Shown here piece after piece: positions 553 to 25,120 of a DNA stretch of 64,000 nt. Origin of the DNA: an uncultured Ignavibacteria bacterium (lineage in GTDB: Bacteria; Zixibacteria; MSB-5A5; WJJR01). Position numbers and translations under genes: made by a program. Location of the stretch: the NCBI GenBank assembly GCA_964371625.1, contig CAYJMP010000001.1, forward strand, positions 1,492,601 to 1,556,600, read 5' to 3'. The notes under the pieces were generated by a model that was not told where the DNA came from, did no database searches, and worked only from the letters and a program-made list of their open reading frames with translations. How positions within the stretch are numbered: the first letter of the stretch is position 1; each line of letters opens with the position of its first letter.

Positions 553-574
553 GGGCGTTCTGGCACCGAAAAAT

Positions 575-640
575 GCAGGCTCGCGAGTACGCTCGCCCTC
601 CACATCCTGATTTGGAGGACGAGCGTACTCGCGAGCCTGC
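575..640. terminator. Long near-perfect inverted repeat (about 21-bp stem) between convergent genes; likely bidirectional terminator
   Basis: GCAGGCTCGCGAGTACGCTCG ... CGAGCGTACTCGCGAGCCTGC with an inner CCTCCA/TGGAGG pairing. On the minus strand the hairpin is followed by GCATTTTTCGG. It lies 6 nt after the stop of the 646..3432 gene. Confidence 0.45.
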
Positions 641-645
641 TCTTC

Positions 646-5465: not shown

Positions 5466-5539
5466 AGACCCCTCTCGCCTTCGGCTCGCCTGCGGCGCGC
5501 CTGCGGGGAGATCGTCCCCCCACACTCAAATCCTACGTA

Positions 5540-5585
5540 TCAATGTCCGGATTGTCAACGAACCCTCGCCAAGGAATGACAGAGA
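5540..5585 (-). promoter_or_regulatory. Sigma70-like promoter candidate upstream of the 11-heme fusion gene
   Basis: The minus strand reads CGTTGACAATCCGGA-N-TTGA...TAGGAT: TTGACA, a 17-nt spacer, then TAGGAT, about 80 nt upstream of the start. The 15-mer CGTTGACAATCCGGA is identical to the element at 7125..7170. Confidence 0.35.
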
Positions 5586-5632
5586 GCCCGCAAGTCTCGA
5601 TGAATTTTGTCAACTTCTATAGGTCAGAATTG

Positions 5633-7054: not shown

Positions 7055-7124
7055 CTTACTCTCCCTTGCCCTTCATGCATGATGGCCAAGCCGGCCGAAC
7101 CATGTCAGAGGGCTCTAAACCTAT

Positions 7125-7170
7125 CCTCAATCATCCGGATTGTCAACGCCGTCAGTTCAATCACTGACAG
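7125..7170 (-). promoter_or_regulatory. Sigma70-like promoter candidate upstream of the 6-heme membrane cytochrome gene
   Basis: The minus strand reads GGCGTTGACAATCCGGATGATTGAGGATAGGTT: TTGACA, a 17-nt spacer, then TAGGTT, about 80 nt upstream of the start at 7054. Confidence 0.3.
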
Positions 7171-7244
7171 TCAACTGGCATATATGACAAAGCGGGCCGC
7201 CGAAAATCCGGCGGCCCGCTGCGACAGAAGAGTGGTCCGAATCG

Positions 7245-8306: not shown

Positions 8307-8351
8307 GCGCTCCTTTCGATCACTATTCAAAATCCTCGTCTTTCATGACCA

Positions 8352-9470
8352 TCATTCCGGATCCCGTCCGTGACAACGCTCGCAGAAACCGACGCCTGGC
8401 CGACGCGCCCCGCCCTCGTGACAGACATAGCAAACAGCGTTTTCATCGTCGTGCCATGAGCCCTTAACATCGCGCATGAATCCCTCGGGATGTGGCGAGA
8501 TGGTGTTGCGATGGCATCGCAGGCATGTCGGCTCGGCAGCACTCTCTTCGTGGCAGGCCGCGCAAACCTCAATATCGGTGCGCGCAAACTCGGCGTGCCT
8601 GTGGTATTCGAAATCGGCCAAGTCATGCCACACTGGCTTCAGCCGCGAACCATCATTCTCGGGGTTATGGCAGGCATTGCAGAATGTCTGCGGTTCGTGG
8701 CAAACTGCGCAGTCCAAGGTCTTCGCGCGCACGTCACTACCGTGCGTCCAACGGTAGTTCAGATCATGCGCCCGCTGCAGAATCAAAAGGTCGTTTCCCT
8801 CATGGGCTGAAGCCATCGGACCAATTCGATCGACCGGCGCGTCCGCCTTATTCAAGATCGCCAGTCCCAGCGCCGCCCCTTCGTGGCACTCCGAGCAGTA
8901 ACTCTCACGATGACATGTCTCGCACGATTTGGCGTCGCCCCGCGCCTTGATTGAGTGATCCGACACCCAGTCGGCCACGTGATCCTTGGGGCGGAGCAAC
9001 TGTACCTGCGAATGGCACACGTTGCAGTTGTCGTTCATCTCACGTTCGCCGTGGCAATCAGTGCAAATCGACATCGACGGCAGGGCATGACTCGGAGCCT
9101 TCGTCGATTTCTCGACCCCTGCATGACAGCTCGCGCATTCCATCCCCATCGACACGTGCTTGGCGTGGTCGAAGATGAGTTCACGCGCCGGTGTCGGCCA
9201 CGGCGATGAGCCATCGGCCGGGACCGTCCAGTTCATGTCGGCTTGCTCGTGACAGCCGTAGCAGTCTGCAAGAGTGGGCAGCAGTATCGTCACCGAGGTC
9301 GTGGCAGAACTGGCCGCTTTGTGGCAATCGAGGCAGGCGGCGCCAACGTCTTCAATATGCTTTTTATGATCGAAGGGGATCGTGGGAGTCTTCGTGCCCG
9401 AGGCGTATGCCGAAAAGAAGATTGCTCCCGCCGCCATCACCAAACCCACTATGGTTGCGCGCCGCTTCAT
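8352..9470 (-). CDS. Periplasmic multiheme c-type cytochrome (13 CXXCH), MtrA/OmaB-like candidate
   Basis: Signal peptide MKRRATIVGLVMAAGAIFFSAYASG. The 13 motifs are CLDCH, CYGCH, CASCH, CTDCH, CNVCH, CETCH, CSECH, CAVCH, CNACH, CAACH, CLRCH, CYVCH and CERCH. The ATG overlaps the stop of the upstream beta-barrel gene (ATGA-type coupling at 9470). Confidence 0.75.
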   Translation of the reverse strand: MKRRATIVGLVMAAGAIFFSAYASGTKTPTIPFDHKKHIEDVGAACLDCHKAASSATTSVTILLPTLADCYGCHEQADMNWTVPADGSSPWPTPARELIFDHAKHVSMGMECASCHAGVEKSTKAPSHALPSMSICTDCHGEREMNDNCNVCHSQVQLLRPKDHVADWVSDHSIKARGDAKSCETCHRESYCSECHEGAALGLAILNKADAPVDRIGPMASAHEGNDLLILQRAHDLNYRWTHGSDVRAKTLDCAVCHEPQTFCNACHNPENDGSRLKPVWHDLADFEYHRHAEFARTDIEVCAACHEESAAEPTCLRCHRNTISPHPEGFMRDVKGSWHDDENAVCYVCHEGGARRPGVGFCERCHGRDPE

Positions 9471-10771
9471 TATTGCCCACCCCCCTCGGTCGATCCCTGC
9501 CCACCCAAGCGGTTGAAGAACCACCAGGAGAATCGCGCGATCACGCGGAAATCCGATTCGTCTCCGGCGAACGACGCCATGGTCTTCAGGTCTTGAGTCA
9601 GATATTGCAGCTCCAGATCCCACGATGCTTGCGGCATCCACTGCCACCGCACCCCGGCCCACGCCGAGGCTTCGGTATTGGATTCTTCCTGATCCTCGAA
9701 GAGTTCGTAAGTCGAATAGTGCGAGCCGCCGCGCAATGTCCAGCGTGGGTTGAGCGGATACATGGCTTCCCCGGACAACGACACGGTCGATCCGGAGGCT
9801 CCCGCCTTGGTGTGGAGCATGAGTGAGAAATACTTGTGTGAGGCCCCGAGATCAAAACGTTGGGCACTTTCATCAGCGATGTCCACCAAGGCCCCGCCGA
9901 CTGTCAATGTCCAGGTCTCGTTCACGCGGTAGTGCAGTCGCAATCGTCCTTCGCGGAACTCGGTATCACCAAACACCCAAAAGATCGAATTGTAAGCGAG
10001 GCCGGGACGACGATAGCGAAATTGCCCTTGCACGCTGAGCTTCGAAGTCGCATCCCAGCGCGCCGAAATATGCGCCCGCTGGATCCGTGAGCGCGGTTGA
10101 TCATAGAGGAGATTTCCATAGAGAGAACCGAACGCCGGGAACGACCTGCGCCAATCGAGTCCGAAATTACGGGACGCGAGATCATCCACCTCCGTCGACC
10201 CATAACTGCGCTGAATTCGGCGCTCGGCAAAGGTCAGAAACATGGTTCCCATCATCGGGCATCGTCTGCCGACTCGTAGACCGAACGCATGCCCCTCATC
10301 GAAATCTCTCGGCTTGAATCGTCCGTCTTCCGGAGCGAGTGATCCGATGTATCCGCCAAGCTCAAATTCTTTCCAGAAGCGCAAATCGGCAGAGCCGCCG
10401 TCAATAGCTAACGAGCCATTCGGCCAACTCATCCGGTGGCGTCCAACAGTCAGATCGAGGACGTTCGCCAGCTTCTTCCAGCGCGCATAGAGGTCGTAGA
10501 CACGGTAATCGTCGACATTGTCTCCCTGACTGCGCGAGTCCAAACGGCCGCGCATGGTCGTCGCGATTTCCAAGTCCTGGCCGCCGATCCGGCCGAGACG
10601 CAAGCCCAATGTCCCGGAGTTCTGCCAATGCCGTGTGTCGGTGCTGTCGAGCTCACTGCGCTCCCACAAATAGCTGGAAACACCGACTCGACCCGTGAGC
10701 ACAGCCGCGTTGGCTGATATCGAAATCCCGAGGAGAATGACCAGAGCAAGACTAACAGGTATACGGTTCAT
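9470..10771 (-). CDS. Predicted outer-membrane beta-barrel protein, candidate porin of a porin-cytochrome conduit
   Basis: Signal peptide MNRIPVSLALVILLGISISANA, then ~410 aa rich in alternating aromatic/Gly beta-strand-like segments (YRVYDLYARW, FGLRVG, LYGNLLYD, WTLTVGGALV, RVIARFSWWFF). It is first in the operon, immediately upstream of and coupled to the 13-heme cytochrome. No homology search was possible; the call rests on position and composition. Confidence 0.45.
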   Translation of the reverse strand: MNRIPVSLALVILLGISISANAAVLTGRVGVSSYLWERSELDSTDTRHWQNSGTLGLRLGRIGGQDLEIATTMRGRLDSRSQGDNVDDYRVYDLYARWKKLANVLDLTVGRHRMSWPNGSLAIDGGSADLRFWKEFELGGYIGSLAPEDGRFKPRDFDEGHAFGLRVGRRCPMMGTMFLTFAERRIQRSYGSTEVDDLASRNFGLDWRRSFPAFGSLYGNLLYDQPRSRIQRAHISARWDATSKLSVQGQFRYRRPGLAYNSIFWVFGDTEFREGRLRLHYRVNETWTLTVGGALVDIADESAQRFDLGASHKYFSLMLHTKAGASGSTVSLSGEAMYPLNPRWTLRGGSHYSTYELFEDQEESNTEASAWAGVRWQWMPQASWDLELQYLTQDLKTMASFAGDESDFRVIARFSWWFFNRLGGQGSTEGGGQ

Positions 10772-12762: not shown

Positions 12763-13107
12763 ATGGACCTGATGTGGTTCCTCTTTCTCGCGCATCTGAC
12801 CGGGGACTATGCGCTCCAGTCTGACCGCATGGCGGCAGAAAAGGGTCGCAGACTGTCGCAACTGACTCGGCATGTGGTGATCTATACACTCTGTATTGGC
12901 GCCACGTTGTGGCTCTACGCTGCGGCAACTTCACAGTTCAAATTCTATTCCTGGCACGCGGCCGGAATGCTGGCCCCACTTCTGGCGTTGCACTGGATTC
13001 AGGATTACATCAAGGGCCACTACCTCGCCCACAGCAAGCAAGCGTACTACGCCGACCAAGTCTTGCACTTGGCCCAACTGTACATCATCCGGCTGCTTCT
13101 GATATGA
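12763..13107 (+). CDS. Small hydrophobic membrane protein (DUF3307-like), translationally coupled to the downstream cyclase
   Basis: 114 aa with 3-4 predicted TM segments (MDLMWFLFLAHLTGDYALQ..., VVIYTLCIGATLWLYAAA, LAPLLALHWIQDYI). Its stop TGA at 13105..13107 overlaps the ATG at 13104 of the next gene. Confidence 0.4.
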   Translation: MDLMWFLFLAHLTGDYALQSDRMAAEKGRRLSQLTRHVVIYTLCIGATLWLYAAATSQFKFYSWHAAGMLAPLLALHWIQDYIKGHYLAHSKQAYYADQVLHLAQLYIIRLLLI

Positions 13108-16100
13108 CCGAATCGGGGAGACCAGACGAAGCGGTCGTGGCGCTGGTCTCGCGCCGACTCTGGACTACTCAACAGAGCCGCGAGTCCCGCATCTGCAACG
13201 GCTCAGTCCTTTTCGCCGACATTGCGGGGTTCACCCACCTGACCGAGACCGCGAAGCTGCGCGCCGGTACTCGCGGCATCGAGGAACTGACCGCCCGCAT
13301 CAATGCCGTCTTTGATGACTTGGTCGTGGCGGCGCACTCAACCGGCGGCGACATCCTGAAATTCGGAGGGGACGCGATCCTCGTCGCCTTCGATGCCAAT
13401 GGCGATGATCAAGATGCCGTCGCCCGCGCGATTCGCTGCGCCGGACGGATGCAAACAGCAATCGCGCGCCATCGTCGCGCCACGCTGCGATCACTTTCGC
13501 TGCATCTCGGCATTGCTCAAGGGCCGTGGTGGGAATATGTGGCGGGAATCACGGGCGCAAGGCGTGAGCACTTTGTCTGGGGAGAAACCATCGCACGGGC
13601 CATGGATGCCGCGGACTCTGTCAGTCGTAACGTGCGCATTGACTGCCCTGCCCGCCTTCTGCCACGCGATGGCGTGAGTCGATTCGATCGAGTCGGCGCT
13701 CACCAATTCGACCTCAAATCGTCCGCCCCGGGAATCGCCTCCATCTCCCGGCACGTCTTTGAAACTCCGAATGATACCCAAGCGATCTGGGATTTCGTAC
13801 CCGAGGTCCTCCGCGATCCCGACCGAATTGCGGCGTTCGACGCCGCCCATTCCGCCGAGCATCGGCGTGTCTCAACGGTCTTCGCGTTTTGGAAGTGTCC
13901 GCAGGGCATGAAAAATCCTGTTCAGAGCGCGGAGCTATTCAATTCCGTTTTCCAATGCGCCCATGCCGCATCTTCTTCCGAGAACGGCGTGTGGGCTCGC
14001 AGTGATCCCTCCGGTGACAAGCAGAAGATTCTGGTTCTCTTTGGAGCAACGCAAAGCTCGACGGACGATGTGAATCGCGCGGTGTCGTTTGCCAATACCC
14101 TGCGGGATGACTTTGCCAAACTGCGAAAGAAGTTTCCGTCTCTCAAGCTGGGAATCGGTGTCGCCACGGCGACTGTGTTTACCGGATTTGTCGGCAACAA
14201 GGAGCGTCGCGAGTTTACCGCGATGGGGGACGGTGTCAACCTTGCGGCCCGCCTAGCCGCAAAAGCGAAAAACGGCAGCATTCTCGTGGACGCAACGACG
14301 CGAGACGAGTCGACGCGTTATCAATTCCGGCCCGCGGGAGTGTTGGCGCTCAAGAATGTCCGCAAGCCAACGGCCGTGTTTCGGCCTGCCGGAGTGATCT
14401 CGGTCGATGCCAGGAAGACGGCAGACCATATTGTCGAGCACCCGACGGCCCTGCGTCGTTGTCTGATGCTTTGGGAGGATGGGGCACACAGTGTCCATAT
14501 TGCCGTCGAGCCCGGCACCGATGCGCGCAAATTCCTCGCTCAGCTGACTTCACGCTTGCGCGATTTTGGCAGCAACCACCTCGCAGTGACATTTGACCCG
14601 GGTGATGCCTCGCGTCCACTGGCAGGCCTTCGGCGGTTGTGCGCGATCTTGTTGCCGAGCGCGAACGATCCCCTGGCTGAATTGCTGGAGGATTCGGAAA
14701 GACACGTGCCTCGCATGCTTGCCCGTCTTGGGTTGGAAGCGGCAGCCAATGAGATCGCGCGACTAGTACTGCGACAGGTGGCACCGGCGAGCCCTATCGT
14801 TTTGGATCACGTCGAATTCCTCGAAGGATTGGATCGCAAAGCCATCGAAACGCTCATCGAGAAGGCGCCAAACCGATGGCTGGTCATCGAGTTTCAGGAC
14901 GAGCCGCACACGTCTTCGCCAAGTGGTGCAGAGGTTGTTACGCTTGGCGCATTGACGCGCGACGAATTGACACGGGTCATCGGCGACATTTTGGAACCGG
15001 CCCGTCCATCACGATCCTTGATTGACTTCTTGTACGAACGCTCTCATGGGACCGTCCGCCTGGCGCGGTCTTTTCTCTCGCATCTCATTTCCGCGGGCGC
15101 CGTCACCCGTTCGGGGGGGCACCGCGCCGTCTGGCAGTTGCGCGATCCAGACAGTGTGAACATCCCCGATGGTCTGCGCGCGCATTTCCTCCAGCATGTG
15201 GACCGGCTTCCCCATCCTGAACGAATGGTCCTCCGGGCCGTGACCCTCCTCAATGATTCGGCACCGTTTCAGGCAATTGCCCGCCTGTGCAATGATCTCG
15301 ACGAGGCGAAGATTGCAGCCTGCCTGGAAAAGTTGAAAGAGCATGGTCTGATTGAACTGCACAGTGGCGACCGGGAATTGCGTGCATCTGTCTGTGATCT
15401 GACCTGTCGTCAGGCTGTATACGAGACAATGTCATACCGCCTGCGCGAAGCATGGCACCAAGAGGCGGCGTCCTTCTGGCGCGCCGTGACGCGACCCGAC
15501 CCTGCTCGCATTGGGGAGCATCTATTTCGCGCGCGCCGGGTTGAATCGGCCAAGTGGCTGTCTCAGGCGGCGACACGGGCTCAGCGATTGTGGTCGCTGG
15601 ACCGCGCACGCCAATTCAGCCGATGGGCAATTCTCGCCGCACAAGGCAATTGTAAGGTCGATTATGCATCAGTTATTCCCCCTCTCTCCAAGCACCCGGC
15701 GCATACGGAAGTGACACTTTTTGATTCTCTCGCCGAGATCTTTCGATTGCAGGGGCTTCATGTTGAAGCAGGGCGCATCCACCGCTGGCTGGCGCGGATC
15801 GCCAAGGGCTCAAAGAACCTCCGGCTGTCCTGTCATCATCGCCTGGTCGCGGCGCGCATGGATTGGTACAGCGGTCATTACGAGAAATCCGGTCGACAGG
15901 CTCTATCTGTTTTGCGGCAATCACGGCGCCTGAAAGATCAGACTTTGACGGCAGAGTCGGCCTATCTCTTCGGTGAGACGTGCCGACGCACCGGTCGAGT
16001 CAATGCGTCCCTGCGAGCCCTCACCGAAGCCGAGGCGCTCCTTCGGGATTCGGACAAACGAGATGTTTATGCTGATGTGCTCAATGCCCTTGGGCTTCTG

Positions 16101-17093
16101 CATTGGAACTGCGGCCGGCTCGAAGATGCGCACGCGTGTTTCGAGAGATCACTGCGGGCTCTTGCCCGCAGTGGTGACCCGGCCCGCCGCGGCCAGGTCG
16201 CGAATAATCTCGGGATTCTCCATGAAGAGCAAGGCCATCTCCGTCGGGCCGAACACTACTACGCCAAATCGTTTACGGTCTTCGACCGCACCGGCGTACG
16301 ACGCCACCGCGCCTACAGCCTGGGCAACCTGGCCAATTTGCATCGTCACGGCGCGCGGTATGAACGTGCCCGTGCCGCCTACGAAGAGGTTGATACCGAA
16401 CTGCGCGCGATGGGTGAGGCGCATGCCGCGGCGTACACGGTCGGAAATCTCGGAGATCTCGCGCGTGACTTTGGCGACTGGGATGTCGCGCACGAACGCT
16501 ACGATTCCACACTCAAATTCGCCATCAAAGCCGGCGATGAGGAGTTGAAAGCCGAATGCTTCGGCCGCCTGGCGCACCTGCACCTGTTGGCCGGGCGCTA
16601 TAACTGCATGCCGAGACTCCTGCGTAAGTCAAAGGAAGCCGCCAAGTGCGCCGATTCACGCGAATTCGCTCTCTATGAGCAAATGCTGCGGGCCGAACTC
16701 GAGATGGTTCAGTCCAACAAATCAGTCGCCGAGAATCGATTCGTCGAGGCGCACAGGGCCGCAACCGAAGTCGGACTCGTCTATTATCAATTGTGGGCGC
16801 AGCATGGACTCGCGCGACTGGCCCACAAACCGGGCCGGATCATCATGTCTGGGATGACGAAAGCACGAAGGAGCGGCTACCGCTGGTGGGAACTGCGCTT
16901 TGCCGAATTGGGCGCGCGGGATGACATGCCGAAGCACGTTCGGGAGCGTTGCCTCACTCAATGCACCACATTGGCGCGCGAAATCGAAGCTGGCATTGGC
17001 GACCCGAGGACGAGGAGCCGTTTCCTTGAATTGCTGCTGAGTCGCAAATTGAGTCTTGTCGCGTCTAATTCCCCGGTCTTGCCTCAGGAGTAA
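13104..17093 (+). CDS. Tandem class III adenylate/guanylate cyclase domains followed by a long TPR-repeat region (signal-transduction protein)
   Basis: First CHD: VLFADIAGFTHLTE...KFGGDAILVAF...GIAQGPWWEYVAGITGARREHFVWGETIARAMD. Second CHD: KILVLFGATQSS...GIGVATATVFTGFVGNKERREFTAMGDGVNLAARLAAKA. Multiple TPR-like repeats lie in the C-terminal half (NALGLLHWNCGRLEDAHACFERSL...ANNLGILHEEQGHLRRAEHYYAKS...YSLGNLANLHRHGARYERA). I did not see a clean Walker A. The start is at MTESGRPDE (13104); the ORF-track extension from 12909 is rejected because it overlaps the previous gene. Confidence 0.75.
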   Translation: MTESGRPDEAVVALVSRRLWTTQQSRESRICNGSVLFADIAGFTHLTETAKLRAGTRGIEELTARINAVFDDLVVAAHSTGGDILKFGGDAILVAFDANGDDQDAVARAIRCAGRMQTAIARHRRATLRSLSLHLGIAQGPWWEYVAGITGARREHFVWGETIARAMDAADSVSRNVRIDCPARLLPRDGVSRFDRVGAHQFDLKSSAPGIASISRHVFETPNDTQAIWDFVPEVLRDPDRIAAFDAAHSAEHRRVSTVFAFWKCPQGMKNPVQSAELFNSVFQCAHAASSSENGVWARSDPSGDKQKILVLFGATQSSTDDVNRAVSFANTLRDDFAKLRKKFPSLKLGIGVATATVFTGFVGNKERREFTAMGDGVNLAARLAAKAKNGSILVDATTRDESTRYQFRPAGVLALKNVRKPTAVFRPAGVISVDARKTADHIVEHPTALRRCLMLWEDGAHSVHIAVEPGTDARKFLAQLTSRLRDFGSNHLAVTFDPGDASRPLAGLRRLCAILLPSANDPLAELLEDSERHVPRMLARLGLEAAANEIARLVLRQVAPASPIVLDHVEFLEGLDRKAIETLIEKAPNRWLVIEFQDEPHTSSPSGAEVVTLGALTRDELTRVIGDILEPARPSRSLIDFLYERSHGTVRLARSFLSHLISAGAVTRSGGHRAVWQLRDPDSVNIPDGLRAHFLQHVDRLPHPERMVLRAVTLLNDSAPFQAIARLCNDLDEAKIAACLEKLKEHGLIELHSGDRELRASVCDLTCRQAVYETMSYRLREAWHQEAASFWRAVTRPDPARIGEHLFRARRVESAKWLSQAATRAQRLWSLDRARQFSRWAILAAQGNCKVDYASVIPPLSKHPAHTEVTLFDSLAEIFRLQGLHVEAGRIHRWLARIAKGSKNLRLSCHHRLVAARMDWYSGHYEKSGRQALSVLRQSRRLKDQTLTAESAYLFGETCRRTGRVNASLRALTEAEALLRDSDKRDVYADVLNALGLLHWNCGRLEDAHACFERSLRALARSGDPARRGQVANNLGILHEEQGHLRRAEHYYAKSFTVFDRTGVRRHRAYSLGNLANLHRHGARYERARAAYEEVDTELRAMGEAHAAAYTVGNLGDLARDFGDWDVAHERYDSTLKFAIKAGDEELKAECFGRLAHLHLLAGRYNCMPRLLRKSKEAAKCADSREFALYEQMLRAELEMVQSNKSVAENRFVEAHRAATEVGLVYYQLWAQHGLARLAHKPGRIIMSGMTKARRSGYRWWELRFAELGARDDMPKHVRERCLTQCTTLAREIEAGIGDPRTRSRFLELLLSRKLSLVASNSPVLPQE

Positions 17094-17544
17094 AGCAGTG
17101 CCAGAGTATGACGCTGGCCATCACAAGAAACCCGCACACCATGAGAACGGAGCTTGGATAAATGACCCAAGCCGCCCACCGCTCCCCGATCGCGATCAGC
17201 CAAAGTGAGCCGAAGGTCGACAGCAGGGAAAGTAAAGTCTCTGTGGCCCAAAGGCTCTTCCATCTTGCCAACACGTCAGTGAACGCAAAGAGCACCGCCA
17301 CTGCAAAGAACAGCATGCCCATCCCCAGAAGATGGGTGTGCACAATCTCGAGCATCTCCCCCGTCGACTTTCCGAACTTCAGTTCTTCTTCATTGCCTTG
17401 GTAGTGATCTGAGATTCCTTCGGATCGCATCCCCGTGTTGTGCGCGATGAACGCGAGGCCCGCGGCGTACCCCAAAAGACTCACGAGGATGAACACTGCG
17501 ATCGGCATGCGCAGGTATGACGGCAGCGTTCGGAGTCGCACCAT
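17065..17544 (-). CDS. Small 4-TM membrane protein with conserved intramembrane His (possible heme-b/electron-transfer membrane partner of the flavinylated protein)
   Basis: MVRLRTLPSYLRMPIAVFILVSLLGYAAGLAFIAHNTG...LEIVHTHLLGMGMLFFAVAVLF...SLLSTFGSLWLIAIGERWAAWVIY...VLMVCGFLVMASVILWHCF. The start M (MVRLRT) overlaps the stop of the upstream FMN-binding gene; the alternative start 17559 (MGEPI) is possible. Confidence 0.4.
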   Translation of the reverse strand: MVRLRTLPSYLRMPIAVFILVSLLGYAAGLAFIAHNTGMRSEGISDHYQGNEEELKFGKSTGEMLEIVHTHLLGMGMLFFAVAVLFAFTDVLARWKSLWATETLLSLLSTFGSLWLIAIGERWAAWVIYPSSVLMVCGFLVMASVILWHCFTPEARPGN

Positions 17545-18134
17545 TATTGGTTCTCCCACTTTTCCGCCCGTACTTGCTCGGCCAGGGCCAGCGCCTTGCG
17601 CACACCCGCATTCAAGGCGTTAACCGAGATCGTGGCGCCGGTGATGTTGATGATATCACGATTGATACGGATCGGGTCGGCCAGAGACTTTCCCCGGTAC
17701 TGCTTGAGGAATCTCGTCTGCCGCACGTCTCCCCCACGGCTCTCACGGTACACCAGCACGCGCACATCGACGATGTGCAATGCCGTATCCACTCCCGCCA
17801 TAAACGTGATCGGTCGATATTTTCCCTGCTCATCGGCGACCACGGCCGTGCCGAGCAACTTTCCTGCGGAAAACACATCGATATAAACGAATGCGCTGTC
17901 GCGCAATTCGCAGCCAAGCCGAGCGCGAAGTTTCGCGCACATGACCGAGTCCACCACGATGACCTGAGATAATGCCGAGTCTGCATCGGGAAAAATCTCG
18001 GCTAGGGCCGCGTCTTCTGAAGTGAGCACCTCGACTGCCCCGATTTCATCTTCCGTCGGGATTTCCTGCGCTCCGCTGGACACCAAATGCCCGAACACGA
18101 GGAATACGGATGAGAACAGGCGCAAGGTAGTCAT
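17544..18134 (-). CDS. Secreted FMN-binding domain protein (FMN_bind-type, substrate for covalent flavinylation)
   Basis: Signal peptide MTTLRLFSSVFLVFGHLVSSGAQE. The C-terminal motif DIINITGATISVNALNAGVRKAL matches the FMN_bind S/TGAT flavinylation motif (NosR/RnfG/PplA-like). ATGA overlap with the upstream ApbE gene. Confidence 0.6.
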   Translation of the reverse strand: MTTLRLFSSVFLVFGHLVSSGAQEIPTEDEIGAVEVLTSEDAALAEIFPDADSALSQVIVVDSVMCAKLRARLGCELRDSAFVYIDVFSAGKLLGTAVVADEQGKYRPITFMAGVDTALHIVDVRVLVYRESRGGDVRQTRFLKQYRGKSLADPIRINRDIINITGATISVNALNAGVRKALALAEQVRAEKWENQ

Positions 18135-19210
18135 GGGTGCAGCGCCTCGAGATCCCCGATCACTGTCACGCCCTCGTCGATGTCGGGCCAACTTGAATCG
18201 ATCATTACCGCCGCAAAATCCTGATTGGACACAAGCCATTCCTTCGCTTTAGCACTCCCCATGACAAACAATCCTGATGACGCTGCGTCGACCGCCAACC
18301 CCTGATGGCCGAACACGGTGATGGATAGCAGGTCGGTTTGTGCCGGCATGCCGGTCCTCGGATCCATCAAATGACCGACGCGTTTTCCTTCCAGCGACAT
18401 GCGGAATGTCTCGATGTTCCCCGACGTCGCCACGGTGGAGAATCGATGGCGAACACGCATAGCGGGATCGAATCGACCACGTAGCGGGTCTCGAATCACG
18501 CACTCCCAAGTGCCGATGCCATTCTTGGCGGCTCGGAAGATGTCACCGCCACAATTGGCCATCGCCGATTCCGCGCCCGCGGCGAGCGCCGCGCAGACCG
18601 CTCGCTCCGCAGCGAGTCCCTTCGCCCATCCCCCCGAATCCAATTCGATCTCGGTTGATTCGCGCAGGAGGCGCCCGCCGTGCAAATCGCACTCGAGCAT
18701 GCGGTAATCCCAATCCCGTGTCGATGGGGATTCCTTCGTGGGCACGGAGCTCTCAAGTGGGCTCCGGAATCCCCAGCGCCGCATCATCGGCTCGACCGTC
18801 GGATCGAACATCCCCTCGAACCGCCCTGCCCAATGGAGACTCGCACCGATGGCTTCGAGCAGGGACTCATCGTCGATGTCGACGGAGAGGGTCTTGTTGG
18901 AATTGAATTGTGAGAGAGACGATCGCATGTCGAACACAGAATACACGCGATCAACCTCGCGAATCGCCTCGACCATCGCGGCAACCGCCAGTCGGGCCAC
19001 CTCCAGCTTTTCACTCTCGGCCTGAAGGGTATTCCAACCTCCCATTGCCCAGAGCTCCCGATGGAGCTTGGGGCGGCCCATTGCCTCAACAGGGCGAAGT
19101 AAGAGTGGAGGCACAAAGAGCGCTCCCGCCAACGTCGCGCCCGCGCCAAGAAAGCGACGACGCGTCCAAGTGGGTTCATCAGAACGTGCGGCCACGAATC
19201 GAGACTTCAT
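18131..19210 (-). CDS. apbE: FAD:protein FMN transferase (ApbE/Ftp family) with Tat signal
   Basis: Twin-arginine motif TRRRFLGAGATLAGALF. The ApbE signature region is ELDSGGWAKGLAAERA, with MDPRTGMP near the C-terminus. Confidence 0.75.
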   Translation of the reverse strand: MKSRFVAARSDEPTWTRRRFLGAGATLAGALFVPPLLLRPVEAMGRPKLHRELWAMGGWNTLQAESEKLEVARLAVAAMVEAIREVDRVYSVFDMRSSLSQFNSNKTLSVDIDDESLLEAIGASLHWAGRFEGMFDPTVEPMMRRWGFRSPLESSVPTKESPSTRDWDYRMLECDLHGGRLLRESTEIELDSGGWAKGLAAERAVCAALAAGAESAMANCGGDIFRAAKNGIGTWECVIRDPLRGRFDPAMRVRHRFSTVATSGNIETFRMSLEGKRVGHLMDPRTGMPAQTDLLSITVFGHQGLAVDAASSGLFVMGSAKAKEWLVSNQDFAAVMIDSSWPDIDEGVTVIGDLEALHP

Positions 19211-19216
19211 CGTCGC

Positions 19217-20380
19217 CTAGAAGTACGTCGCCAGTGAGAAACTGAACAATTTGCTGGGCACTGACCACGTCGTCGCGCCGGTTCCGCGCGTCCATGACCA
19301 ACTGTAGTCGGCTTTGACAACCGTGCCTTCGACCGGACGCATATTGAGACCGAAAGTGGCCGCCTGCTCATCGTCGCCGTCGCGATCGGTGTCGTAGTCG
19401 ACGCGGTCCCACCGCACCACGCCGGTGAACACGCTCTCCGGATAACGCCGGATCGCGCCAAAGCCGAAGTGGTATCCCACCTGGGCATAGAAGCCCATTT
19501 GCGCCTCTGCGGTCGGGGAGGCTGATGGCGCTACATCGGCGGAGACCAACGCCCCCTCCCCGCTGAACTGGTACGGCCCGCGCTGCAGATCCCAGTCCAG
19601 CGCGCCGATTGTGAGATCCTGCTCGCCGAAGTCGTCGTACTTCCCATGATGCCCGGATATCCCGACATCGACACCGAGCATCGGCGAGGCCGACAAACGA
19701 CCAGTGATCGCCTTGTTCTCGTTGTTATCAGTCTTCTGTGAACCGCGACCGCCGCGTACGCGCAGCCGCTGATTGCTGTCTATGATTCTCTGATTGAACC
19801 CGTTTATGATGTAAAGCTCGTACCCGATGACCCAATCCTGCGGATAGAACGACCCAAAGACCCCCATGCCGGCCTCGGACAATGTGGTCGGGAGCAGTTG
19901 ACGCGAGACTGCCGGCCTATTGGTGAGATCGTTGAGCGGCGAATCATGGATGAGGTTAAATTTCCCCAATGGCGTCAGAAGCACACCACCACGGATGTTG
20001 AGCGCATCCGAGAATACCCAGTCCATGAAGGCGTATTCCAATTTGATCTCGCCGTCCGTCTCCTCGTCGCCGGCCACTGCTCCTCCGTGCTCGAACTCGA
20101 TCTCCGTTGCGACGTGGATGTAATCAACCGGTTGCGCGAATATGAACGGGATGAGTCGATGCTGGTCGAACGTGGAATGCTCCCCGGATATTAGAAGTTC
20201 GTGATCCATATATCCACCGATCGCGATGCCGCCCGCGAAGTTTTTCAGATAGGGCTTGTCGGTGATTCCGCCTGGAACGACCGGGCGCGGACCAGTTGCA
20301 ACTTGCGCATGTGACGATTTTGCGGCCAGGATGCCGCAACCAAGGAACGCGGCGGCAAAAACGATCGACTTACGATACAT
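19217..20380 (-). CDS. Predicted outer-membrane beta-barrel protein (porin-like), first gene of the ApbE operon
   Basis: Signal peptide MYRKSIVFAAAFLGCGILAAKSSHAQ. Beta-rich composition and a C-terminal ...FSFSLATYF ending in Phe, typical of OM beta-barrels. A 6-nt gap separates it from apbE. Confidence 0.45.
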   Translation of the reverse strand: MYRKSIVFAAAFLGCGILAAKSSHAQVATGPRPVVPGGITDKPYLKNFAGGIAIGGYMDHELLISGEHSTFDQHRLIPFIFAQPVDYIHVATEIEFEHGGAVAGDEETDGEIKLEYAFMDWVFSDALNIRGGVLLTPLGKFNLIHDSPLNDLTNRPAVSRQLLPTTLSEAGMGVFGSFYPQDWVIGYELYIINGFNQRIIDSNQRLRVRGGRGSQKTDNNENKAITGRLSASPMLGVDVGISGHHGKYDDFGEQDLTIGALDWDLQRGPYQFSGEGALVSADVAPSASPTAEAQMGFYAQVGYHFGFGAIRRYPESVFTGVVRWDRVDYDTDRDGDDEQAATFGLNMRPVEGTVVKADYSWSWTRGTGATTWSVPSKLFSFSLATYF

Positions 20381-20595: not shown

Positions 20596-21096
20596 TCACC
20601 TCTTTGCCTCGATCCGGCATGATTCTTCCAGTTCGCAGTCGCGACAATGCTCCCCGGCCATGCGCAATTCCAGATACTCGTGGAAATGCTCGATCATGGC
20701 GGCAATATCCATCCGGCAGTGTTGCATGTAGTCTAGGAATGCGGTCAGGCGCGCCATCGTCTCGGCTCCCATCACATGTTCGACTTCGCAGGCATCACGC
20801 GCGGCCGTGCGCGGGTTGAGCTGCAGGACCTCGACAAAGAACTTCTGCAGGACTTCATAACGGCTGTTGATCGCCTCGGCCAGCTTCTTCCCCCGCGACG
20901 ATAATTGCACCGTCCCGTACGAGGTATGCAGCACCAACCCTCGCGCCTTCAGCGATCGCAGGGCCTCGGACACCGACGGCATGGTCACCCCCAGCGACTC
21001 GGCGATGGCTTTCACGCGCACCGCTTCCCCGTCAAGCCCCAGACGCAGGATCGTCTTGAGGTACATTTCCATGTTGGACGAAAGTGGCTTGGTCAC
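20596..21096 (-). CDS. DtxR/MntR-family metal-dependent transcriptional repressor
   Basis: N-terminal MEMYLKTILRL...AESLGVTMPSVSEALRSLKARGLV, a winged HTH typical of DtxR/IdeR/MntR, then a metal-binding/dimerisation region with His/Cys/Glu. Confidence 0.8.
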   Translation of the reverse strand: MTKPLSSNMEMYLKTILRLGLDGEAVRVKAIAESLGVTMPSVSEALRSLKARGLVLHTSYGTVQLSSRGKKLAEAINSRYEVLQKFFVEVLQLNPRTAARDACEVEHVMGAETMARLTAFLDYMQHCRMDIAAMIEHFHEYLELRMAGEHCRDCELEESCRIEAKR

Positions 21097-21538: not shown

Positions 21539-22756
21539 GTGGAAGAGGGTGAGGACTTAGTAATGTTGAAAGAGAAGAATTCAGGACGGCGACATACTTC
21601 TAATGACAGCGCAATCTCGGCGGTGCACGCAATCGCAGCGAGAGACCATCGCCGCTTGTTACCAGCGATCATCAGTATGGCTGCAACAACCGTCGTCGTG
21701 GCAATCTGCCTGGGACTGCATCCTTCAGGCGCCAGAGCGGGAGTCGAATCCTCCGTCGCAAGTCAGCCCGACAGGGTGGCCGTGGATAGTGGCCAATCCT
21801 CTGGCGCTGTCACAGGAGGGCCATCGATCCACTTTCCGGAGCCATCATTTGATTTTGGCACGGTCTCTCAGGGAACCAAAGTCGCCCACACATTCGCCGT
21901 GAAAAACACCGGCGATAAACCGCTGAAATTGATCAGGGCAAAGGCAACGTGAGGGTGCACAGCTGCCGTCTTGACAGTGACGGACATTCCCCCGGGCGGG
22001 GAAGGCAAAATAGAGGTGACCTTCGACAGCACACACAAGAAAGGCAAGCAGCAGAAGTCTATCACCGTAGAATCGAACGATCCTGCTCATCCGGAGTCGA
22101 CCCTACGGATTTCCGTGCTGATCGAGGTTGAGTTTGAATTCGAGTCTTCCATCTTGAGCATCGGTCACATTCGCAAAGGAGCACCCACAACCAAGACTGC
22201 GGTTCTGTTGATCAAGGATCCCTCCAAGAGAAGCCTGATCAATCTCACTTCCCAATCTTCTCAGATCGCTGCCCGGTTGGTTGAATCGGCAGCCGTCGAC
22301 AGTGGCCGAATTGATGTTGAAATCACCGTGAGTCCTGAGACGCCAGCCGGAAAAATGAATCAGTGGGTTATGGCAGAGATATCGGATGGCTCGTATCCGA
22401 CAGCAAGGCTGCAGATCGAAGGAACCGTTGTTGGCAATGTTGAGGTAAGTACTGAGAATGTGCGCTTCACAGTCGATACCTCCCGAGCGGCAACTGCTCC
22501 GACCGAACAAGAGATACAAGTCAGCGGCACACAGAGCGAATTCAAATTCCGGCTGCTGGGTGTTGAAGATTCCAAGGGCCTCTTGGCAATCGACATTGAT
22601 ACTGTGGCTGCTGGAGAGCGGTACGTAATCAGAGCGAAACCTAACGCGAATGCCTTGAAACTGAGGGGCAGTGCTTCGGGCGTAATGCGGATACTGACTG
22701 ACGATTCAGAACAGCCTGTGTTTGCAATCGGTTATGGCATCATTATCAGGCGCTGA
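21539..22756 (+). CDS. DUF1573-family secreted protein interrupted by an in-frame TGA (21950..21952) at the first Cys of the conserved SCGCT motif; selenocysteine candidate or pseudogene
   Basis: ORFs 21539..21952 and 21971..22756 are in the same frame. The joined translation ...FDFGTVSQGTKVAHTFAVKNTGDKPLKLIRAKAT[TGA]GCTAAVLTVTDIPPGGEGKIEVTFDS... matches the DUF1573 consensus ...PL.I..V..SCGCT...PG..G.I.V.F. A hairpin CCGTC-TTGACAGT-GACGG begins 13 nt after the TGA. Confidence 0.5.
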
Positions 22757-23170
22757 CCACAGAATCTGGCAAGCCACTGGGCATCGGCTTGGATGACGGC
22801 CCATACCGTTCCATGACTGACAGGCTTTCAACATGCTGCAGTGATGGGACTACTCGCCAAATGTGAGCAACCGGGGACTTTCGTGGTATTCACAGTCCTG
22901 CCTTGGCACCTATGGGGAGTGCCTCTGTCTGGCCCTCACCGCGGCCGGAGTGTAAGATCAGGCCCGAAGAAACCACATCTCGCGAGACAATCTTACTGCG
23001 GCAGCCACAACACCCCGGAGAACCGAATTTCCTCAATGTGGGTTTTGAGATTTCAGCTCGGAGCGGTGTATTACACTCTGAGCGCCGGCGCTTGCGGGCG
23101 AGTGGTGATGCCCGTTCTCAGGCCTCCGCCAATTCAAGATCGGATGCACTTCCTCCGTCGGAGTCCGATA

Positions 23171-24304
23171 ATGTCGCGAACCATCCCATTGCTTTTGCTG
23201 TTCCTGGCATGCGAGGCCCACGCGGCCTTGCCAAAGGTCCGTCTGACCCCGGTCTATCCGCATCTCCAATTCGATCGCCCGCTCTGCATCACGCATGCGA
23301 ATGATGGGGCGGGGCGGTTGTTCGTGGTCGAACAGGCGGGACGCATCCACGTCATGCCAGACGATCCCGGAACGAAGCAGTCATCGGTCTTCCTGGATAT
23401 CAGCGAGAGAGTCCGCACGGCGCACAACGAAGAGGGCCTGCTCGCTTTGGCGTTTCATCCTGGATACAAGGACAATGGCTTCTTCTATATCTACTACTCC
23501 GCCTCGGATCCTCGCCGCGGCGTACTCTCGCGCTTCCGTGTATCTCCCGACAACGAGAACGCTGCCGATCCGTCCTCAGAACGCGTGGTCCTGGAAGTCG
23601 AGCAACCGTACGGCAACCACAATGGCGCGACGGTGCTCTTTGGTCCCGATGGGTACTTGTACATCAGCCTCGGCGACGGCGGCTCGGCAGGCGATCCGTA
23701 CGGCAACGGGCAGAACCTCGACGCGCTCCTCGGGAAAATCCTCCGTCTTGATGTCAATCGTACCGATTCATCAAAGAACTATGCTATTCCATCGGACAAT
23801 CCCTTTGTTGGTGTTAAAGGCGCGCGCCCGGAAGTATGGGCGTATGGCTTGAGAAATGTCTGGCGAATGAGTTTCGACCGGCAAACCGGAGAACTCTGGG
23901 CCGGTGATGTCGGTCAGAACAAATGGGAAGAAATCGACATCATCGTCCGCGGCGGCAACTACGGCTGGAATATTCGCGAGGGGATGCACCCCTTTGAGGA
24001 TGCCGAACCGATATCTAAATTGATCGATCCCGTGGCTGAGTATGGCCGCGATGATGGTGCCTCGGTCACCGGAGGGTACGTCTATCGCGGGTCGCGTTTC
24101 CCCGCTCTTCAAGGCGTATACATCTACGCCGACTATGTCACCGGCACGATCTGGGGACTGCACCACTCCGATGGTCGGAAACTTGAAAAGGCGACTCTGC
24201 TCGAACAGCCTAACAACATCTCCTCATTCGGCGAGGACGCCGAGGGCGAAGTCCTAGTGACATGCTTCGATGGCCGTGTGTATCGGCTCGAAAGCGCGCC
24301 TTAG
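23171..24304 (+). CDS. PQQ-dependent sugar (aldose/sorbosone) dehydrogenase family, secreted
   Basis: Signal peptide MSRTIPLLLLFLACEAHA. Motifs EGLLALAFHP, YIYYS, SLGDGGSAGDP, YAIPSDNPF, WAYGLRNVWR and GGNYGWNIREG are typical of the soluble glucose dehydrogenase/YliI beta-propeller family. Confidence 0.8.
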   Translation: MSRTIPLLLLFLACEAHAALPKVRLTPVYPHLQFDRPLCITHANDGAGRLFVVEQAGRIHVMPDDPGTKQSSVFLDISERVRTAHNEEGLLALAFHPGYKDNGFFYIYYSASDPRRGVLSRFRVSPDNENAADPSSERVVLEVEQPYGNHNGATVLFGPDGYLYISLGDGGSAGDPYGNGQNLDALLGKILRLDVNRTDSSKNYAIPSDNPFVGVKGARPEVWAYGLRNVWRMSFDRQTGELWAGDVGQNKWEEIDIIVRGGNYGWNIREGMHPFEDAEPISKLIDPVAEYGRDDGASVTGGYVYRGSRFPALQGVYIYADYVTGTIWGLHHSDGRKLEKATLLEQPNNISSFGEDAEGEVLVTCFDGRVYRLESAP

Positions 24305-24460: not shown

Positions 24461-25120
24461 GTGATGCGAACCGGCGCGATCACCATAGCACTCGGTACTC
24501 TCGGTCTGATTTCGGCTGCCTCATTGGGCACCGCTGGCGAAATCCGCGGTCGCATTCGTGCGAGCGCAAGCGAAGCAGCCCCGCCCGCACGCTATGTCGT
24601 GCGGGGACAGAAAACCACACCCGCCAGCACGAGTGTCGTCGGTACTGTTGCGATTGCCCTCGAACCGCTCGACGCGAAGATTGTCACGCACAGACCCGAC
24701 ACTCCGTTCGTGATGGCTCAGGCGAACACTTCCTTCGTCCCGAACCTGTTGGTGGTGCCGGTCGGAGCACGAGTCACGTTTCCCAACCATGACGCGTTCT
24801 TCCATAACGTGTTCTCATACTCTCCTCCTCGTTCATTCGACCTCGGCCGCTATCCGCAAGGTGAGTCACGCACGGTTCGCTTCGAAGAGCCGGGCATTGT
24901 CCGCATCTTCTGCGAGATTCATGCTTCGATGTACGCCTCGATCCTCGTGGCGCCTTCGGACCTCACCCAGATCATCAGTTCGCAAGATGGATTCTCGTTC
25001 CCCGGCCTATCGGCGGGGCATTATCGCGTGGTGGCCGTCGACGCGGCAGGGCGACGTGCCAAATCCGATATCGATTTGAAAGAAGATCAGGTTAGTGATC
25101 TGATACTGACCCTAGAGTGA
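24461..25120 (+). CDS. Secreted cupredoxin-like (type-1 copper-like) domain protein
   Basis: Signal peptide. The C-terminal fold motif is VPVGARVTFPNHDAFFHNVFS...FCEIHASMYASILV; the His...Cys-x-x-His-x-x-x-x-Met spacing resembles blue-copper ligands. It lies 22 nt upstream of a histidine kinase gene. Confidence 0.4.
   Translation: MMRTGAITIALGTLGLISAASLGTAGEIRGRIRASASEAAPPARYVVRGQKTTPASTSVVGTVAIALEPLDAKIVTHRPDTPFVMAQANTSFVPNLLVVPVGARVTFPNHDAFFHNVFSYSPPRSFDLGRYPQGESRTVRFEEPGIVRIFCEIHASMYASILVAPSDLTQIISSQDGFSFPGLSAGHYRVVAVDAAGRRAKSDIDLKEDQVSDLILTLE

Follow-up and report, generated by a model that had tools for sequence, protein, structure and literature searches.

Here, we describe a small operon encoding a putative flavin-based metal reductase on a 64,000-nucleotide stretch of DNA from an uncultured Ignavibacteria bacterium that GTDB places in the Zixibacteria (assembly GCA_964371625.1, contig CAYJMP010000001.1, positions 1,492,601 to 1,556,600). 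We refer to the whole stretch as the window, and all coordinates are positions within it. On the minus strand, from 20380 to 17065, lie in tight 5′ to 3′ series genes for an outer-membrane porin, an ApbE flavin transferase, a secreted protein with a flavin mononucleotide (FMN)-binding domain (FMN_bind), and an inner-membrane protein with four transmembrane (TM) helices, hereafter the 4-TM protein. Ahead of them, across a 215-nt gap, stands a gene for a DtxR-family metalloregulator, giving the five-gene order regulator, porin, ApbE, FMN_bind, 4-TM (Table 1). We found no names for the four operon proteins in the source records. We propose, with a probability of roughly 0.55, that the operon is an iron-responsive, assimilatory periplasmic metal reductase module whose substrate is most likely Fe(III). 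The regulator and its operators, which a first-pass annotation made from the sequence letters had missed, are the strongest functional clue in the window.

Table 1. Features of the operon and its control region
Feature	Position	Strand or placement	Description and basis
DtxR/IdeR-family metalloregulator	21096-20596	minus	166 aa, GTG start; Pfam Fe_dep_repress and Fe_dep_repr_C
Operator-like palindrome 1, TTAGG-N4-CCTAA	21121-21134	5′ of regulator gene	motif scan and conservation
Operator-like palindrome 2, TTAGG-N4-CCTAA	20556-20569	regulator/porin gap, 176 nt upstream of porin ATG	motif scan and conservation
16-stranded outer-membrane porin	20380-19217	minus	387 aa; AlphaFold2 model and Foldseek
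ApbE FAD:protein FMN transferase, Tat signal	19210-18131	minus	359 aa; PF02424
Secreted RnfG/NqrC-like FMN-binding protein	18134-17544	minus	196 aa; PF04205
4-TM inner-membrane protein Aq_1264_TM (PF27139)	17544-17065	minus	159 aa; precomputed Pfam label, AlphaFold2 model

Organization and products of the operon

The first-pass annotation described four translationally coupled genes: an outer-membrane β-barrel, a Tat-exported ApbE, a secreted FMN-binding protein, and a 4-TM protein. All four genes are present on the minus strand. Coupling holds for the last two junctions: the ApbE and FMN_bind genes share an ATGA overlap, and the FMN_bind and 4-TM genes overlap by 1 nt (TAATG). It does not hold for the barrel, because a 6-nt spacer with no overlap separates the porin stop codon from the ApbE start. 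The 3′ end of the 4-TM gene overlaps by 29 nt (17065-17093) a convergent gene encoding a 1394-residue guanylate-cyclase/TPR protein (12909-17093). A generic scan of the operon strand for sigma-70 promoters and terminators gave nothing meaningful. The cassette arrangement is far beyond chance, as it recurs across phyla.

The porin begins with a signal peptide (residues 1-25, starting MYRKS and ending SSHA, followed by QV) and ends in ATYF. Its AlphaFold2 (AF2) model, based on 26 homologs (predicted local distance difference test score [pLDDT] 80.5), consists of the signal helix and 16 β-strands, and Foldseek matches it to OmpC, OmpU, OmpK36, OprP, and Omp32 with E values from 5e-12 to 1e-9. The signal peptide, the 16 strands, the C-terminal aromatic residue, and the matches to solved porins together identify a 16-stranded outer-membrane porin, in line with the β-barrel expected at the head of the operon. 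At least 918 homologs exist, many labelled PF07396 (Porin_O_P); the window porin itself has no Pfam match. The protein is a diffusion porin and neither a TonB-dependent receptor nor a cytochrome-sheath barrel. Acidic side chains outnumber basic ones among the invariant residues, 18 to 9, and include an E93-x-E95-x-E97 ladder on one strand, a pattern that hints that the porin may be cation selective.

ApbE enzymes move FMN from flavin adenine dinucleotide (FAD) onto a target Thr. The window ApbE matches PF02424 over profile positions 12-265 of 266 (E = 1.2e-50; 172.9 bits, with the cutoff at 25.6). It can be aligned over its whole length with FAD:protein FMN transferases of known structure (TM1553, 4xgw) and keeps the ATSG and HxxDPxTG motifs as VATSGN and HLMDPRTG. 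Its N-terminus, TRRRFLGAGATLAGALF, contains TRRRFLGAG (R17-R18-R19-F-L-G) and then a hydrophobic stretch, with cleavage predicted after VEA43 (bases 19210-19082). The Tat hidden Markov model (HMM) TIGR01409 gives a borderline 15.5 bits against a cutoff of 16.7, but a twin-arginine motif is present in all six extended orthologous open reading frames (ORFs), including those of loci L002, L003, L007, L010, and L012, with the variants RRSFLCTG, RRRFVALG, RRRFLEAG, RRQFLLYT, and RREFGRLV. Because the motif is kept in all extended orthologs, we take the Tat signal to be real and ApbE to be, as first annotated, a predicted Tat-exported, extracytosolic enzyme. Public gene calls for this exact protein start 55 codons downstream (304 aa) and drop the Tat signal (19046-19210); other ApbE orthologs are likewise short in public calls, at 300-306 aa. 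These truncated calls are an annotation error that would hide the periplasmic location of the enzyme.

The FMN-binding protein carries a cleavable-looking signal peptide (residues 1-22, ending SSGA before QE), a single FMN_bind domain (PF04205, E = 2.5e-9; 38.1 bits against a gathering cutoff of 22), and no lipobox Cys. Thus, both of the domain checks that had been suggested, ApbE and FMN_bind, come out above their cutoffs. Over its full length, the protein also matches the rnfG model TIGR01947 (E = 4e-7), with a score, 30 bits against a cutoff of 102, far below that required for the RnfG family, and no genes for Rnf or Nqr subunits lie in the operon or its flanks. The predicted flavin acceptor is T168 in RDIINITGAT(IS), codon 17633-17631: T165-G-A-T168 aligns with the TGAT of the solved RnfG chain 7zc6_G. 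Both the secreted ITGATIS protein and its acceptor Thr are therefore as the first-pass annotation anticipated. The ITGAT motif is invariant in orthologs, including one from a Gemmatimonadales locus with 30% identity. The canonical flavinylation motif is D-x-x-[S/T]-G-A-[S/T] (PMC12052999). The window protein has no Asp at position -6, which is occupied by Ile, and has an Asp at -8. Because Asp is absent from -6 in the solved RnfG 7zc6_G as well, and because substituting Ala for the Asp of the motif has only minor effects (PMC12052999), we treat RDIINITGAT as a motif variant rather than as a disqualifier.

A four-helix membrane protein with a periplasmic HxH site

The 4-TM protein carries the label PF27139 (Aq_1264_TM), a family without known function. 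This assignment is the precomputed Pfam label for this exact protein and for all of its homologs; in the literature searched, we found no mention of aq_1264. A profile search of 1.84 billion representative sequences yielded 399 Aq_1264_TM clusters (approximately 400 at 50% identity), nearly all of them 150-180 aa long. The AF2 model (pLDDT 85) shows four TM helices, with a further short helix within loop 1. Across 30 diverse members, the net charge is +1.9 at the N-terminus, -2.3 in loop 1, +1.8 in loop 2, and +1.0 at the C-terminus, which fits the positive-inside rule with both termini in the cytoplasm. Consistent with this predicted topology, the 531-residue metagenomic protein P0187 is a natural fusion of Aq_1264_TM, the signal-anchor helix of ApbE, and ApbE, an arrangement that is workable only if the C-terminus of the 4-TM portion is cytoplasmic. 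A second candidate fusion, P0136 (340 aa), contains TM1-TM2 and a partial ApbE only; it is a probable frameshift or assembly chimera and was not used.

Only three residues are invariant family-wide: G50, H69, and H71. The two His form an H69-x-H71 motif (17340-17332) on TM2, at its periplasmic start. The acidic periplasmic loop that precedes them (residues 36-66) contains conserved Y48-x-G50 and F57-x-K59, and in the close clade conservation extends to DHY-GN, FGKS-EML, H-HLLGMG, TFG, and PSS. H47 is clade specific, H150 is not conserved, and no conserved cytoplasmic-side His exists across the family.

This pattern departs from that of known membrane partners of flavinylated proteins. Specifically, the partner cytochromes PepSY_TM, MsrQ, and DUF4405 are defined by four heme-ligating His (PMC10979944). 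A two-heme wire of the FoxB/MsrQ/DUF4405 type, with four His, two near each face, was considered for the 4-TM protein and set aside, as H69 and H71 alone are invariant and lie at one face. The first-pass annotation had taken the in-helix His residues as a sign of a plausible heme-b transmembrane electron carrier; the invariant His are confined to the periplasmic end of one helix, and that proposal fails. Its suggested HMM comparison with PepSY_TM and DUF4405 likewise yields no Pfam match, nor is there one to Ferric_reduct or Ni_hydr_CYTB. Foldseek finds nothing below E = 1 in the PDB for the 4-TM model, and hhalign gives Aq_1264_TM and the PepSY_TM partners a 0.3% probability of kinship, marking them as unrelated. 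Kinship with DUF2871 was treated as chance: the window protein scores E = 0.005, which does not pass the cutoff, and one of 30 family members matches. Given the lack of a four-His signature, Aq_1264_TM probably works differently from the known partner cytochromes, and, as its conserved ligands face only the periplasm, a site that oxidises quinol, or one heme or metal bound where subunits of an oligomer meet, is likelier than a two-heme wire.

The same residues could be read in another way. The 4-TM protein might be a small oligomeric permease or channel for Fe2+ or Cu+, with the HxH motif and polar residues of TM3 and TM4 forming the entry site and the flavoprotein drawing its electrons from elsewhere. 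The only invariant side chains are indeed two His at the periplasmic mouth; polar positions are conserved along TM3 and TM4 (E102 in 20, T110 in 17, and S131 in 23 of 30 members); the paired His of a heme wire are missing; and the window operon encodes no other inner-membrane transporter. We nonetheless regard a permease as unlikely. It would leave the periplasmic flavoprotein without an electron source, and the 4-TM gene is strictly coupled to FMN_bind, not to a gene for a metal-binding protein. Further arguments against it come from the operon slot that the family occupies and from the importers encoded nearby, both considered below.

A DtxR-family regulator and its operators

The regulator matches Fe_dep_repress (E = 4e-13, 49.7 bits) and Fe_dep_repr_C (E = 7e-15, 55.2 bits), both above cutoff, and comprises an N-terminal helix-turn-helix domain and a dimerisation/metal domain. 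In an ungapped alignment with DtxR chains, its M11, C103, E106, and H107 coincide with M10, C102, E105, and H106, the primary-site ligands of DtxR. The DtxR ancillary site (His79, Glu83, His98) is not kept, the aligned residues being Tyr, Gln, and Ala, and the protein ends at residue 166 with no SH3-like C-terminal domain. In place of that domain, residues 126-166 (20596-20720) form a Cys/His-rich tail (HC…HFH…HCRDCELEESC), which may be an extra metal- or redox-sensing site.

Two positions of the primary site bear on metal selectivity: Mn-sensing MntR has Asp and Glu where DtxR-type regulators have Met and Cys. The window regulator has Met and Cys, and therefore its ligand set points to Fe(II). 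From these four ligands, we class it as a putative Fe-type regulator.

The palindrome TTAGG-N4-CCTAA has exactly two matches in the 64-kb window when one mismatch is allowed, one in front of the regulator gene and one in front of the porin gene. Its half-site resembles that of the classical DtxR/IdeR box. Nine related loci have boxes at the same two places and nowhere else in approximately 12 kb. Across these loci, the arms of the boxes are invariant, save for one base in one box, and the centres differ. In every case, the upstream box lies within a conserved promoter-like context, TTGACnnnTTAGGnnnnCCTAATAAT; the evidence for this promoter context is its conservation. The box in front of the regulator gene suggests autoregulation. 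Read together, the boxes have the character of a phylogenetic footprint of an autoregulated repressor controlling the operon, which would probably be switched on by iron shortage.

The regulator gene occupies the same position in L001, L002, L005-L007, L009, L019, and L020 (L009 judged by box positions). A box upstream of the porin gene is also present in L003/L004, where boxes are kept with no adjacent regulator gene, and in L019-L022 and L087/L088. In a porin-centred census described below, the DtxR-type box is limited to the window-like clade and L087/L088; therefore, other clades use other regulators. The Zixibacteria locus L002 carries, after the cassette (6677-8341), a second, shorter DtxR-family gene and a gene for a CorA-type cation channel.

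Conservation of the cassette and displacement of its membrane subunit

The closest relatives are metagenome-assembled genomes (MAGs) labelled Zixibacteria and Ignavibacteria, and the five-gene cassette recurs in Zixibacteria and related MAGs. More broadly, the lineages seen so far comprise Zixibacteria, Gemmatimonadota, Myxococcota, Latescibacteria, and many metagenomic ones. The triad formed by the gene in the FMN_bind position, the 4-TM gene, and the ApbE gene is kept in nine of nine independent contexts, down to 22% identity and with the gene order shuffled. The FMN_bind and 4-TM genes overlap by 1-4 nt or lie 2 nt apart, in the window clade and in distant contexts alike, and so appear usually to be translationally coupled. 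We take the 4-TM protein to be a dedicated partner.

Distant members of the set show how far the arrangement extends. On a Gemmatimonadales contig (L012, 30% identity), porin, FMN_bind, 4-TM, and ApbE genes occur together in altered order; neighbours at 126-4312 encode a P-type ATPase, a cytochrome c, and a Tat multicopper oxidase. At 22-28% identity, all four of the loci L014-L017 keep the FMN_bind-position gene, the 4-TM gene, and the ApbE gene together. L014 also has a Porin_O_P gene and FTR1, FtrD-like, and YHS genes with FtsX and ABC genes nearby. In L015, a 178-aa protein with no Pfam match holds the FMN_bind position, and two Cu-binding MopE-like proteins are encoded in the vicinity (1-732, 7302-9899). 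L016 and L017 have no informative neighbours.

Two further observations concern the close relatives. In L005-L007 (6730-7350), the 4-TM gene is followed by a gene for a protein of approximately 200 aa that has no Pfam match and no counterpart in the window. A trio of genes for the cyclase-TPR protein, a DUF3307 protein, and a cNMP-binding histidine kinase is syntenic with the cassette in L001 and L005-L007.

A different membrane subunit occupies the operon in other genomes. Specifically, in a 4.5-Mb genome (L018), a porin 55% identical to that of the window is followed by an FMN_bind protein 43% identical to the window's, with the motif NRxIINITGAT, and the gene next after FMN_bind, third in the series, encodes PepSY_TM. 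The set adjoins Rrf2-FTR1-YHS-FtsX-FtsX-ABC; FTR1-YHS-FtsX-ABC iron-uptake clusters thus flank both L014 and L018. To place this swap in a wider context, we use a census of 80 porin-centred metagenome loci, annotated with HMMs built from the sequences in hand. Of the 61 loci with 700 nt or more of DNA downstream of the porin, 59 have FMN_bind after it. Third place is taken by Aq_1264_TM in 32 of the 80 loci and by PepSY_TM in 21, and 5 have neither; the other 22 loci are incomplete. The two never occur together in a locus, and when the census is de-replicated at 90% porin identity, 22 Aq_1264_TM and 19 PepSY_TM clusters remain. No third type of partner emerged from L032, L035, and L045, the three loci in which porin and FMN_bind genes stand without a partner gene. 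PepSY_TM in these operons is a 2-TM protein that has a repeat domain in the periplasm; its R..H...G and HTG motifs are conserved. The exchange of Aq_1264_TM and PepSY_TM is a non-orthologous displacement in a fixed operon slot.

Iron importers accompany many of these operons. feoB, often with feoA (Pfam-confirmed), is divergently adjacent to the porin gene in many Aq_1264 variants. Where the DNA upstream extends for 2.5 kb or more, feoAB flanks 19 of 22 Aq_1264 variants (13 of 17 clusters after de-replication); for PepSY variants, feoAB is nearby in 3 of 9 clusters. These data bear on the permease reading of the 4-TM protein in two ways: the protein shares its slot with PepSY_TM, a reductase-type cytochrome rather than a transporter, and a second importer would be redundant where feoAB lies beside most Aq_1264 variants and FTR1 beside L014.

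The census also bears on a proposal in which the 4-TM protein serves ApbE, either as its membrane anchor or as a conduit supplying periplasmic FAD for flavinylation. The P0187 fusion speaks for such a service role, as does the adjacency of ApbE in all nine contexts recovered by the 4-TM searches, and periplasmic FAD supply is a real need: dedicated flavin transporters accompany some ApbE clusters (PMC10979944). Among the 21 Aq_1264 census variants with at least 3 kb of downstream DNA, however, only 2 have ApbE within 3.5 kb, and the gene directly beside Aq_1264_TM is FMN_bind in every case. PepSY_TM, which takes the place of Aq_1264_TM elsewhere, is no flavin transporter, and this exchange argues for a redox role; a 159-aa 4-TM bundle with a periplasmic HxH is unlike any known flavin transporter. 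We therefore judge a service role for ApbE improbable, more so than a permease.

A model for iron-repressed periplasmic reduction of Fe(III)

Precedent for the redox role comes from the family that Aq_1264_TM displaces. Characterised PepSY_TM proteins are heme-dependent periplasmic ferrisiderophore reductases, one of which is possibly a copper reductase (PMC13038864), and PepSY-like flavinylation clusters have been tied to iron assimilation (PMC8238504). The location of Aq_1264_TM in the PepSY_TM slot, beside the same flavoprotein and porin, fits a membrane electron-input role. Together, the shared slot, the Fe-type DtxR-family control, and the feoAB and FTR1 neighbours found elsewhere lead us to an iron-repressed assimilatory ferric reductase as the most probable function of the operon.

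Starting from the gene identities, gene coupling, conservation, displacement, and operators observed here, we infer the following course of events, in which the conjectural elements are which way electrons flow, what the substrate is, which metal the regulator senses and, most of all, by what mechanism the 4-TM protein acts. A shortage of Fe(II) inside the cell would release the DtxR-family repressor from both TTAGG-N4-CCTAA operators, and the operon would be transcribed. Through the acid-lined 16-stranded porin, small ferric species or cations would pass into the periplasm. ApbE, exported folded via Tat, would move FMN from FAD onto Thr168 of the RnfG-like protein; for this step, the domain identities come from the present analysis and the chemistry from established knowledge of ApbE. 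The flavoprotein would then dock on the 4-TM protein, which would pass to it electrons from the membrane pool, at the periplasmic face, via a site around the invariant HxH. That site might bind quinol, or else one heme or metal centre, perhaps where subunits of an oligomer meet. The reduced FMN on the flavoprotein would turn Fe(III) into Fe(II). Finally, Fe(II) would enter the cell via a separately encoded importer, FeoAB or FTR1, as encoded next door in related organisms.

Several points weigh against this model. First, no cofactor can be assigned to the 4-TM protein, which offers two His at the periplasmic edge and matches no solved fold or family; the route of electron entry is consequently pure conjecture. 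Second, the regulator lacks the DtxR ancillary site and the SH3 domain, and its 14-bp palindrome departs in spacing from the classical 19-bp DtxR/IdeR box, so the identity of the regulator's metal is read from four ligands only. Third, copper proteins are encoded next to the module in two distant lineages, represented by L012 and L015, so the substrate may not always be iron. Fourth, no Fe(II) importer is encoded in the 64-kb window. Finally, the fusion of Aq_1264_TM with ApbE in P0187 could point to a role in flavin delivery.

In a variant of the model, the architecture and mechanism are the same and the metal is manganese or copper: the regulator might respond to Mn, or the module might reduce Cu(II), the activity proposed for the PepSY_TM protein CrpH. 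Among NCBIfam models, the regulator scores best against those for MntR, with every score falling far short of its cutoff; these matches and the copper-protein neighbours could be taken in favour of such a variant, as could the possible presence of copper reductases among PepSY_TM proteins (PMC13038864). We consider this variant quite unlikely. Mn(II) uptake needs no reduction; the commonest neighbours are feoAB and FTR1; and the regulator has Met and Cys at the positions where, as noted above, MntR has Asp and Glu. Iron remains the metal that we favour.

Relation to known flavinylation and iron-uptake systems

The nearest published counterparts are the PepSY-like flavinylation clusters for iron reduction (Meheust et al. 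2021, PMC8238504) and PepSY_TM ferrisiderophore reductases such as FoxB. There, too, ApbE and a flavinylated protein of the periplasm go with a small partner in the inner membrane, in the setting of iron assimilation, and in sister clusters of the porin/FMN_bind pair that partner is PepSY_TM itself. The partner here is the sequence-unrelated Aq_1264_TM, with one periplasmic HxH as opposed to four heme-ligating His on both faces. In addition, the flavinylated protein is FMN_bind here and DUF2271 in the PepSY-like clusters, the outer-membrane component is a porin here and a TonB-dependent receptor there, and control is by a DtxR-family protein here, whereas Fur repression is reported for the published clusters (PMC8238504). 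The P19/FTR1 clusters that contain an FMN-binding gene (PMC8238504) resemble the present module in joining FMN_bind to an iron importer, as in L014 and L018, which adjoin FTR1-YHS-FtsX-ABC. Unlike them, neither the window nor L014 or L018 has a P19 gene, and the published P19/FTR1 clusters are mostly Gram-positive, with no porin and no Aq_1264_TM partner (PMC8238504).

The catalogued membrane partners of flavinylated proteins comprise Nqr/Rnf, NosR, EetAB, PceC, NapH-like, MsrQ-like, PepSY-like, DsbD, Nqr/Rnf-like, and DUF4405, ten or eleven types in all (PMC8238504, PMC10979944). Aq_1264_TM is not among the types in these two papers, and neither paper mentions FeoB, DtxR, or porins. The new elements here are the Aq_1264_TM partner family and the operator, alongside a dedicated porin; flavinylation-based modules for iron assimilation are already known.

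Other relationships are more partial. The FMN-binding protein shares with RnfG/NqrC whole-length RnfG similarity and the aligned acceptor Thr, but it has a cleavable-looking signal peptide, not the anchor of those subunits, and no RnfA/B/C/D/E or NqrA/B/D/E/F genes are found near the operon. The regulator keeps the two-domain N-terminal architecture and all four primary ligands of DtxR/IdeR, and differs in its length of 166 aa, its Cys/His-rich tail, and its 14-bp operator as against a 19-bp box. Finally, the route proposed here, with porin entry of ferric species, reduction at the periplasmic face, and FeoB import of Fe(II), is that of cyanobacterial reductive iron uptake (PMC7676907). In the cyanobacterial model, entry is by a porin or a TonB-dependent transporter and import by FeoB or ZIP; the reductase is uncertain, with ARTO or superoxide proposed, and is not linked to porin or feoB genes (PMC7676907). 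Here, by contrast, the genes for the porin and the candidate reductase adjoin one another, accompanied in many relatives by feoAB.

The first-pass annotation had seen in the operon the logic of extracellular electron-transfer (EET)-like systems such as Listeria FmnB/PplA with its membrane partners; in Listeria monocytogenes, the full system is FmnB/PplA/EetAB/Ndh2. The general logic survives: both systems have an extracytosolic ApbE-type transferase and a secreted FMN_bind protein that is fed, or here would be fed, by a membrane component. A respiratory EET function is not supported. The Listeria system is respiratory and Gram-positive, its PplA is a lipoprotein with two FMN domains, and it has a dedicated NDH-2 and genes for demethylmenaquinone (DMK) biosynthesis, none of which applies to the present module. 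Specifically, neither the operon nor the 6 kb on either side of it contains Ndh2, EetA/B, or DMK genes; the flavoprotein carries a single FMN domain and lacks a lipobox; the outer membrane is served by a diffusion porin in place of a cytochrome-sheath barrel; and a DtxR-family metalloregulator is in control, with feoAB and FTR1 as neighbours elsewhere.

The window does contain a striking minus-strand cluster at 646-9851, comprising five multiheme c-type cytochrome genes with 19, 11, 5, 5, and 13 CxxCH motifs, 53 in total. Two of the genes have fused cytochrome b561/Ni_hydr_CYTB membrane domains (one with a weak DUF4405 match), one is NapC/NirT-like, and two are MtrC/MtrF-like. The cluster has the appearance of an independent conduit for extracellular electron transfer. 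The suggestion that the operon cooperates with it is not borne out: the cluster is more than 7 kb away, behind the histidine kinase, DUF3307, and cyclase-TPR genes, and, in the other loci for which gene lists were read, no cytochrome genes lie within 6 kb on either side. Owing to this absence of conserved synteny, we reject the link, and we hold a respiratory EET module, with or without the multiheme cluster, to be very improbable, the least probable of the alternatives that we considered.

Other features of the window

Divergent from the regulator gene, on the plus strand at 21539-24304, lie genes for two DUF1573/HYDIN-like Ig-domain proteins and a glucose/sorbosone dehydrogenase (GSDH) β-propeller; a weak cupredoxin-like ORF follows the GSDH gene at 24461-25120. 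The segment from 42001 to 44000 is anomalous in composition relative to the rest of the window (GC skew -0.144, AT skew -0.191) and coincides with two overlapping ORFs, at 41184-42056 on the minus strand and 41271-42992 on the plus strand. An ORF of 2046 aa occupies 46509-52649 on the minus strand.

Implications

Flavinylated extracytosolic proteins are a widespread alternative to cytochromes, and their function hinges on the delivery of electrons across or from the membrane. Aq_1264_TM stands beside the gene in the FMN_bind position in every context examined and replaces PepSY_TM one for one. We tentatively suggest, at slightly less than even odds, that Aq_1264_TM represents a new class of flavinylation-associated membrane redox subunit: a minimal four-helix protein that would pass electrons from the quinone pool to an RnfG-like protein with covalently bound flavin, via a periplasmic HxH site that could be occupied by quinol or by one heme or metal centre where subunits of an oligomer meet. 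Combined with a dedicated cation-type porin and, in many relatives, FeoAB or FTR1, it may constitute a self-contained, siderophore-independent system of reductive iron uptake in diverse, mostly uncultured Gram-negative bacteria. The association of porin, candidate reductase and, in many relatives, feoAB would provide a concrete gene set for such siderophore-independent reductive uptake. Finally, the TTAGG-N4-CCTAA operator and its compact DtxR-like regulator offer a handle for regulon prediction in these uncultured lineages.

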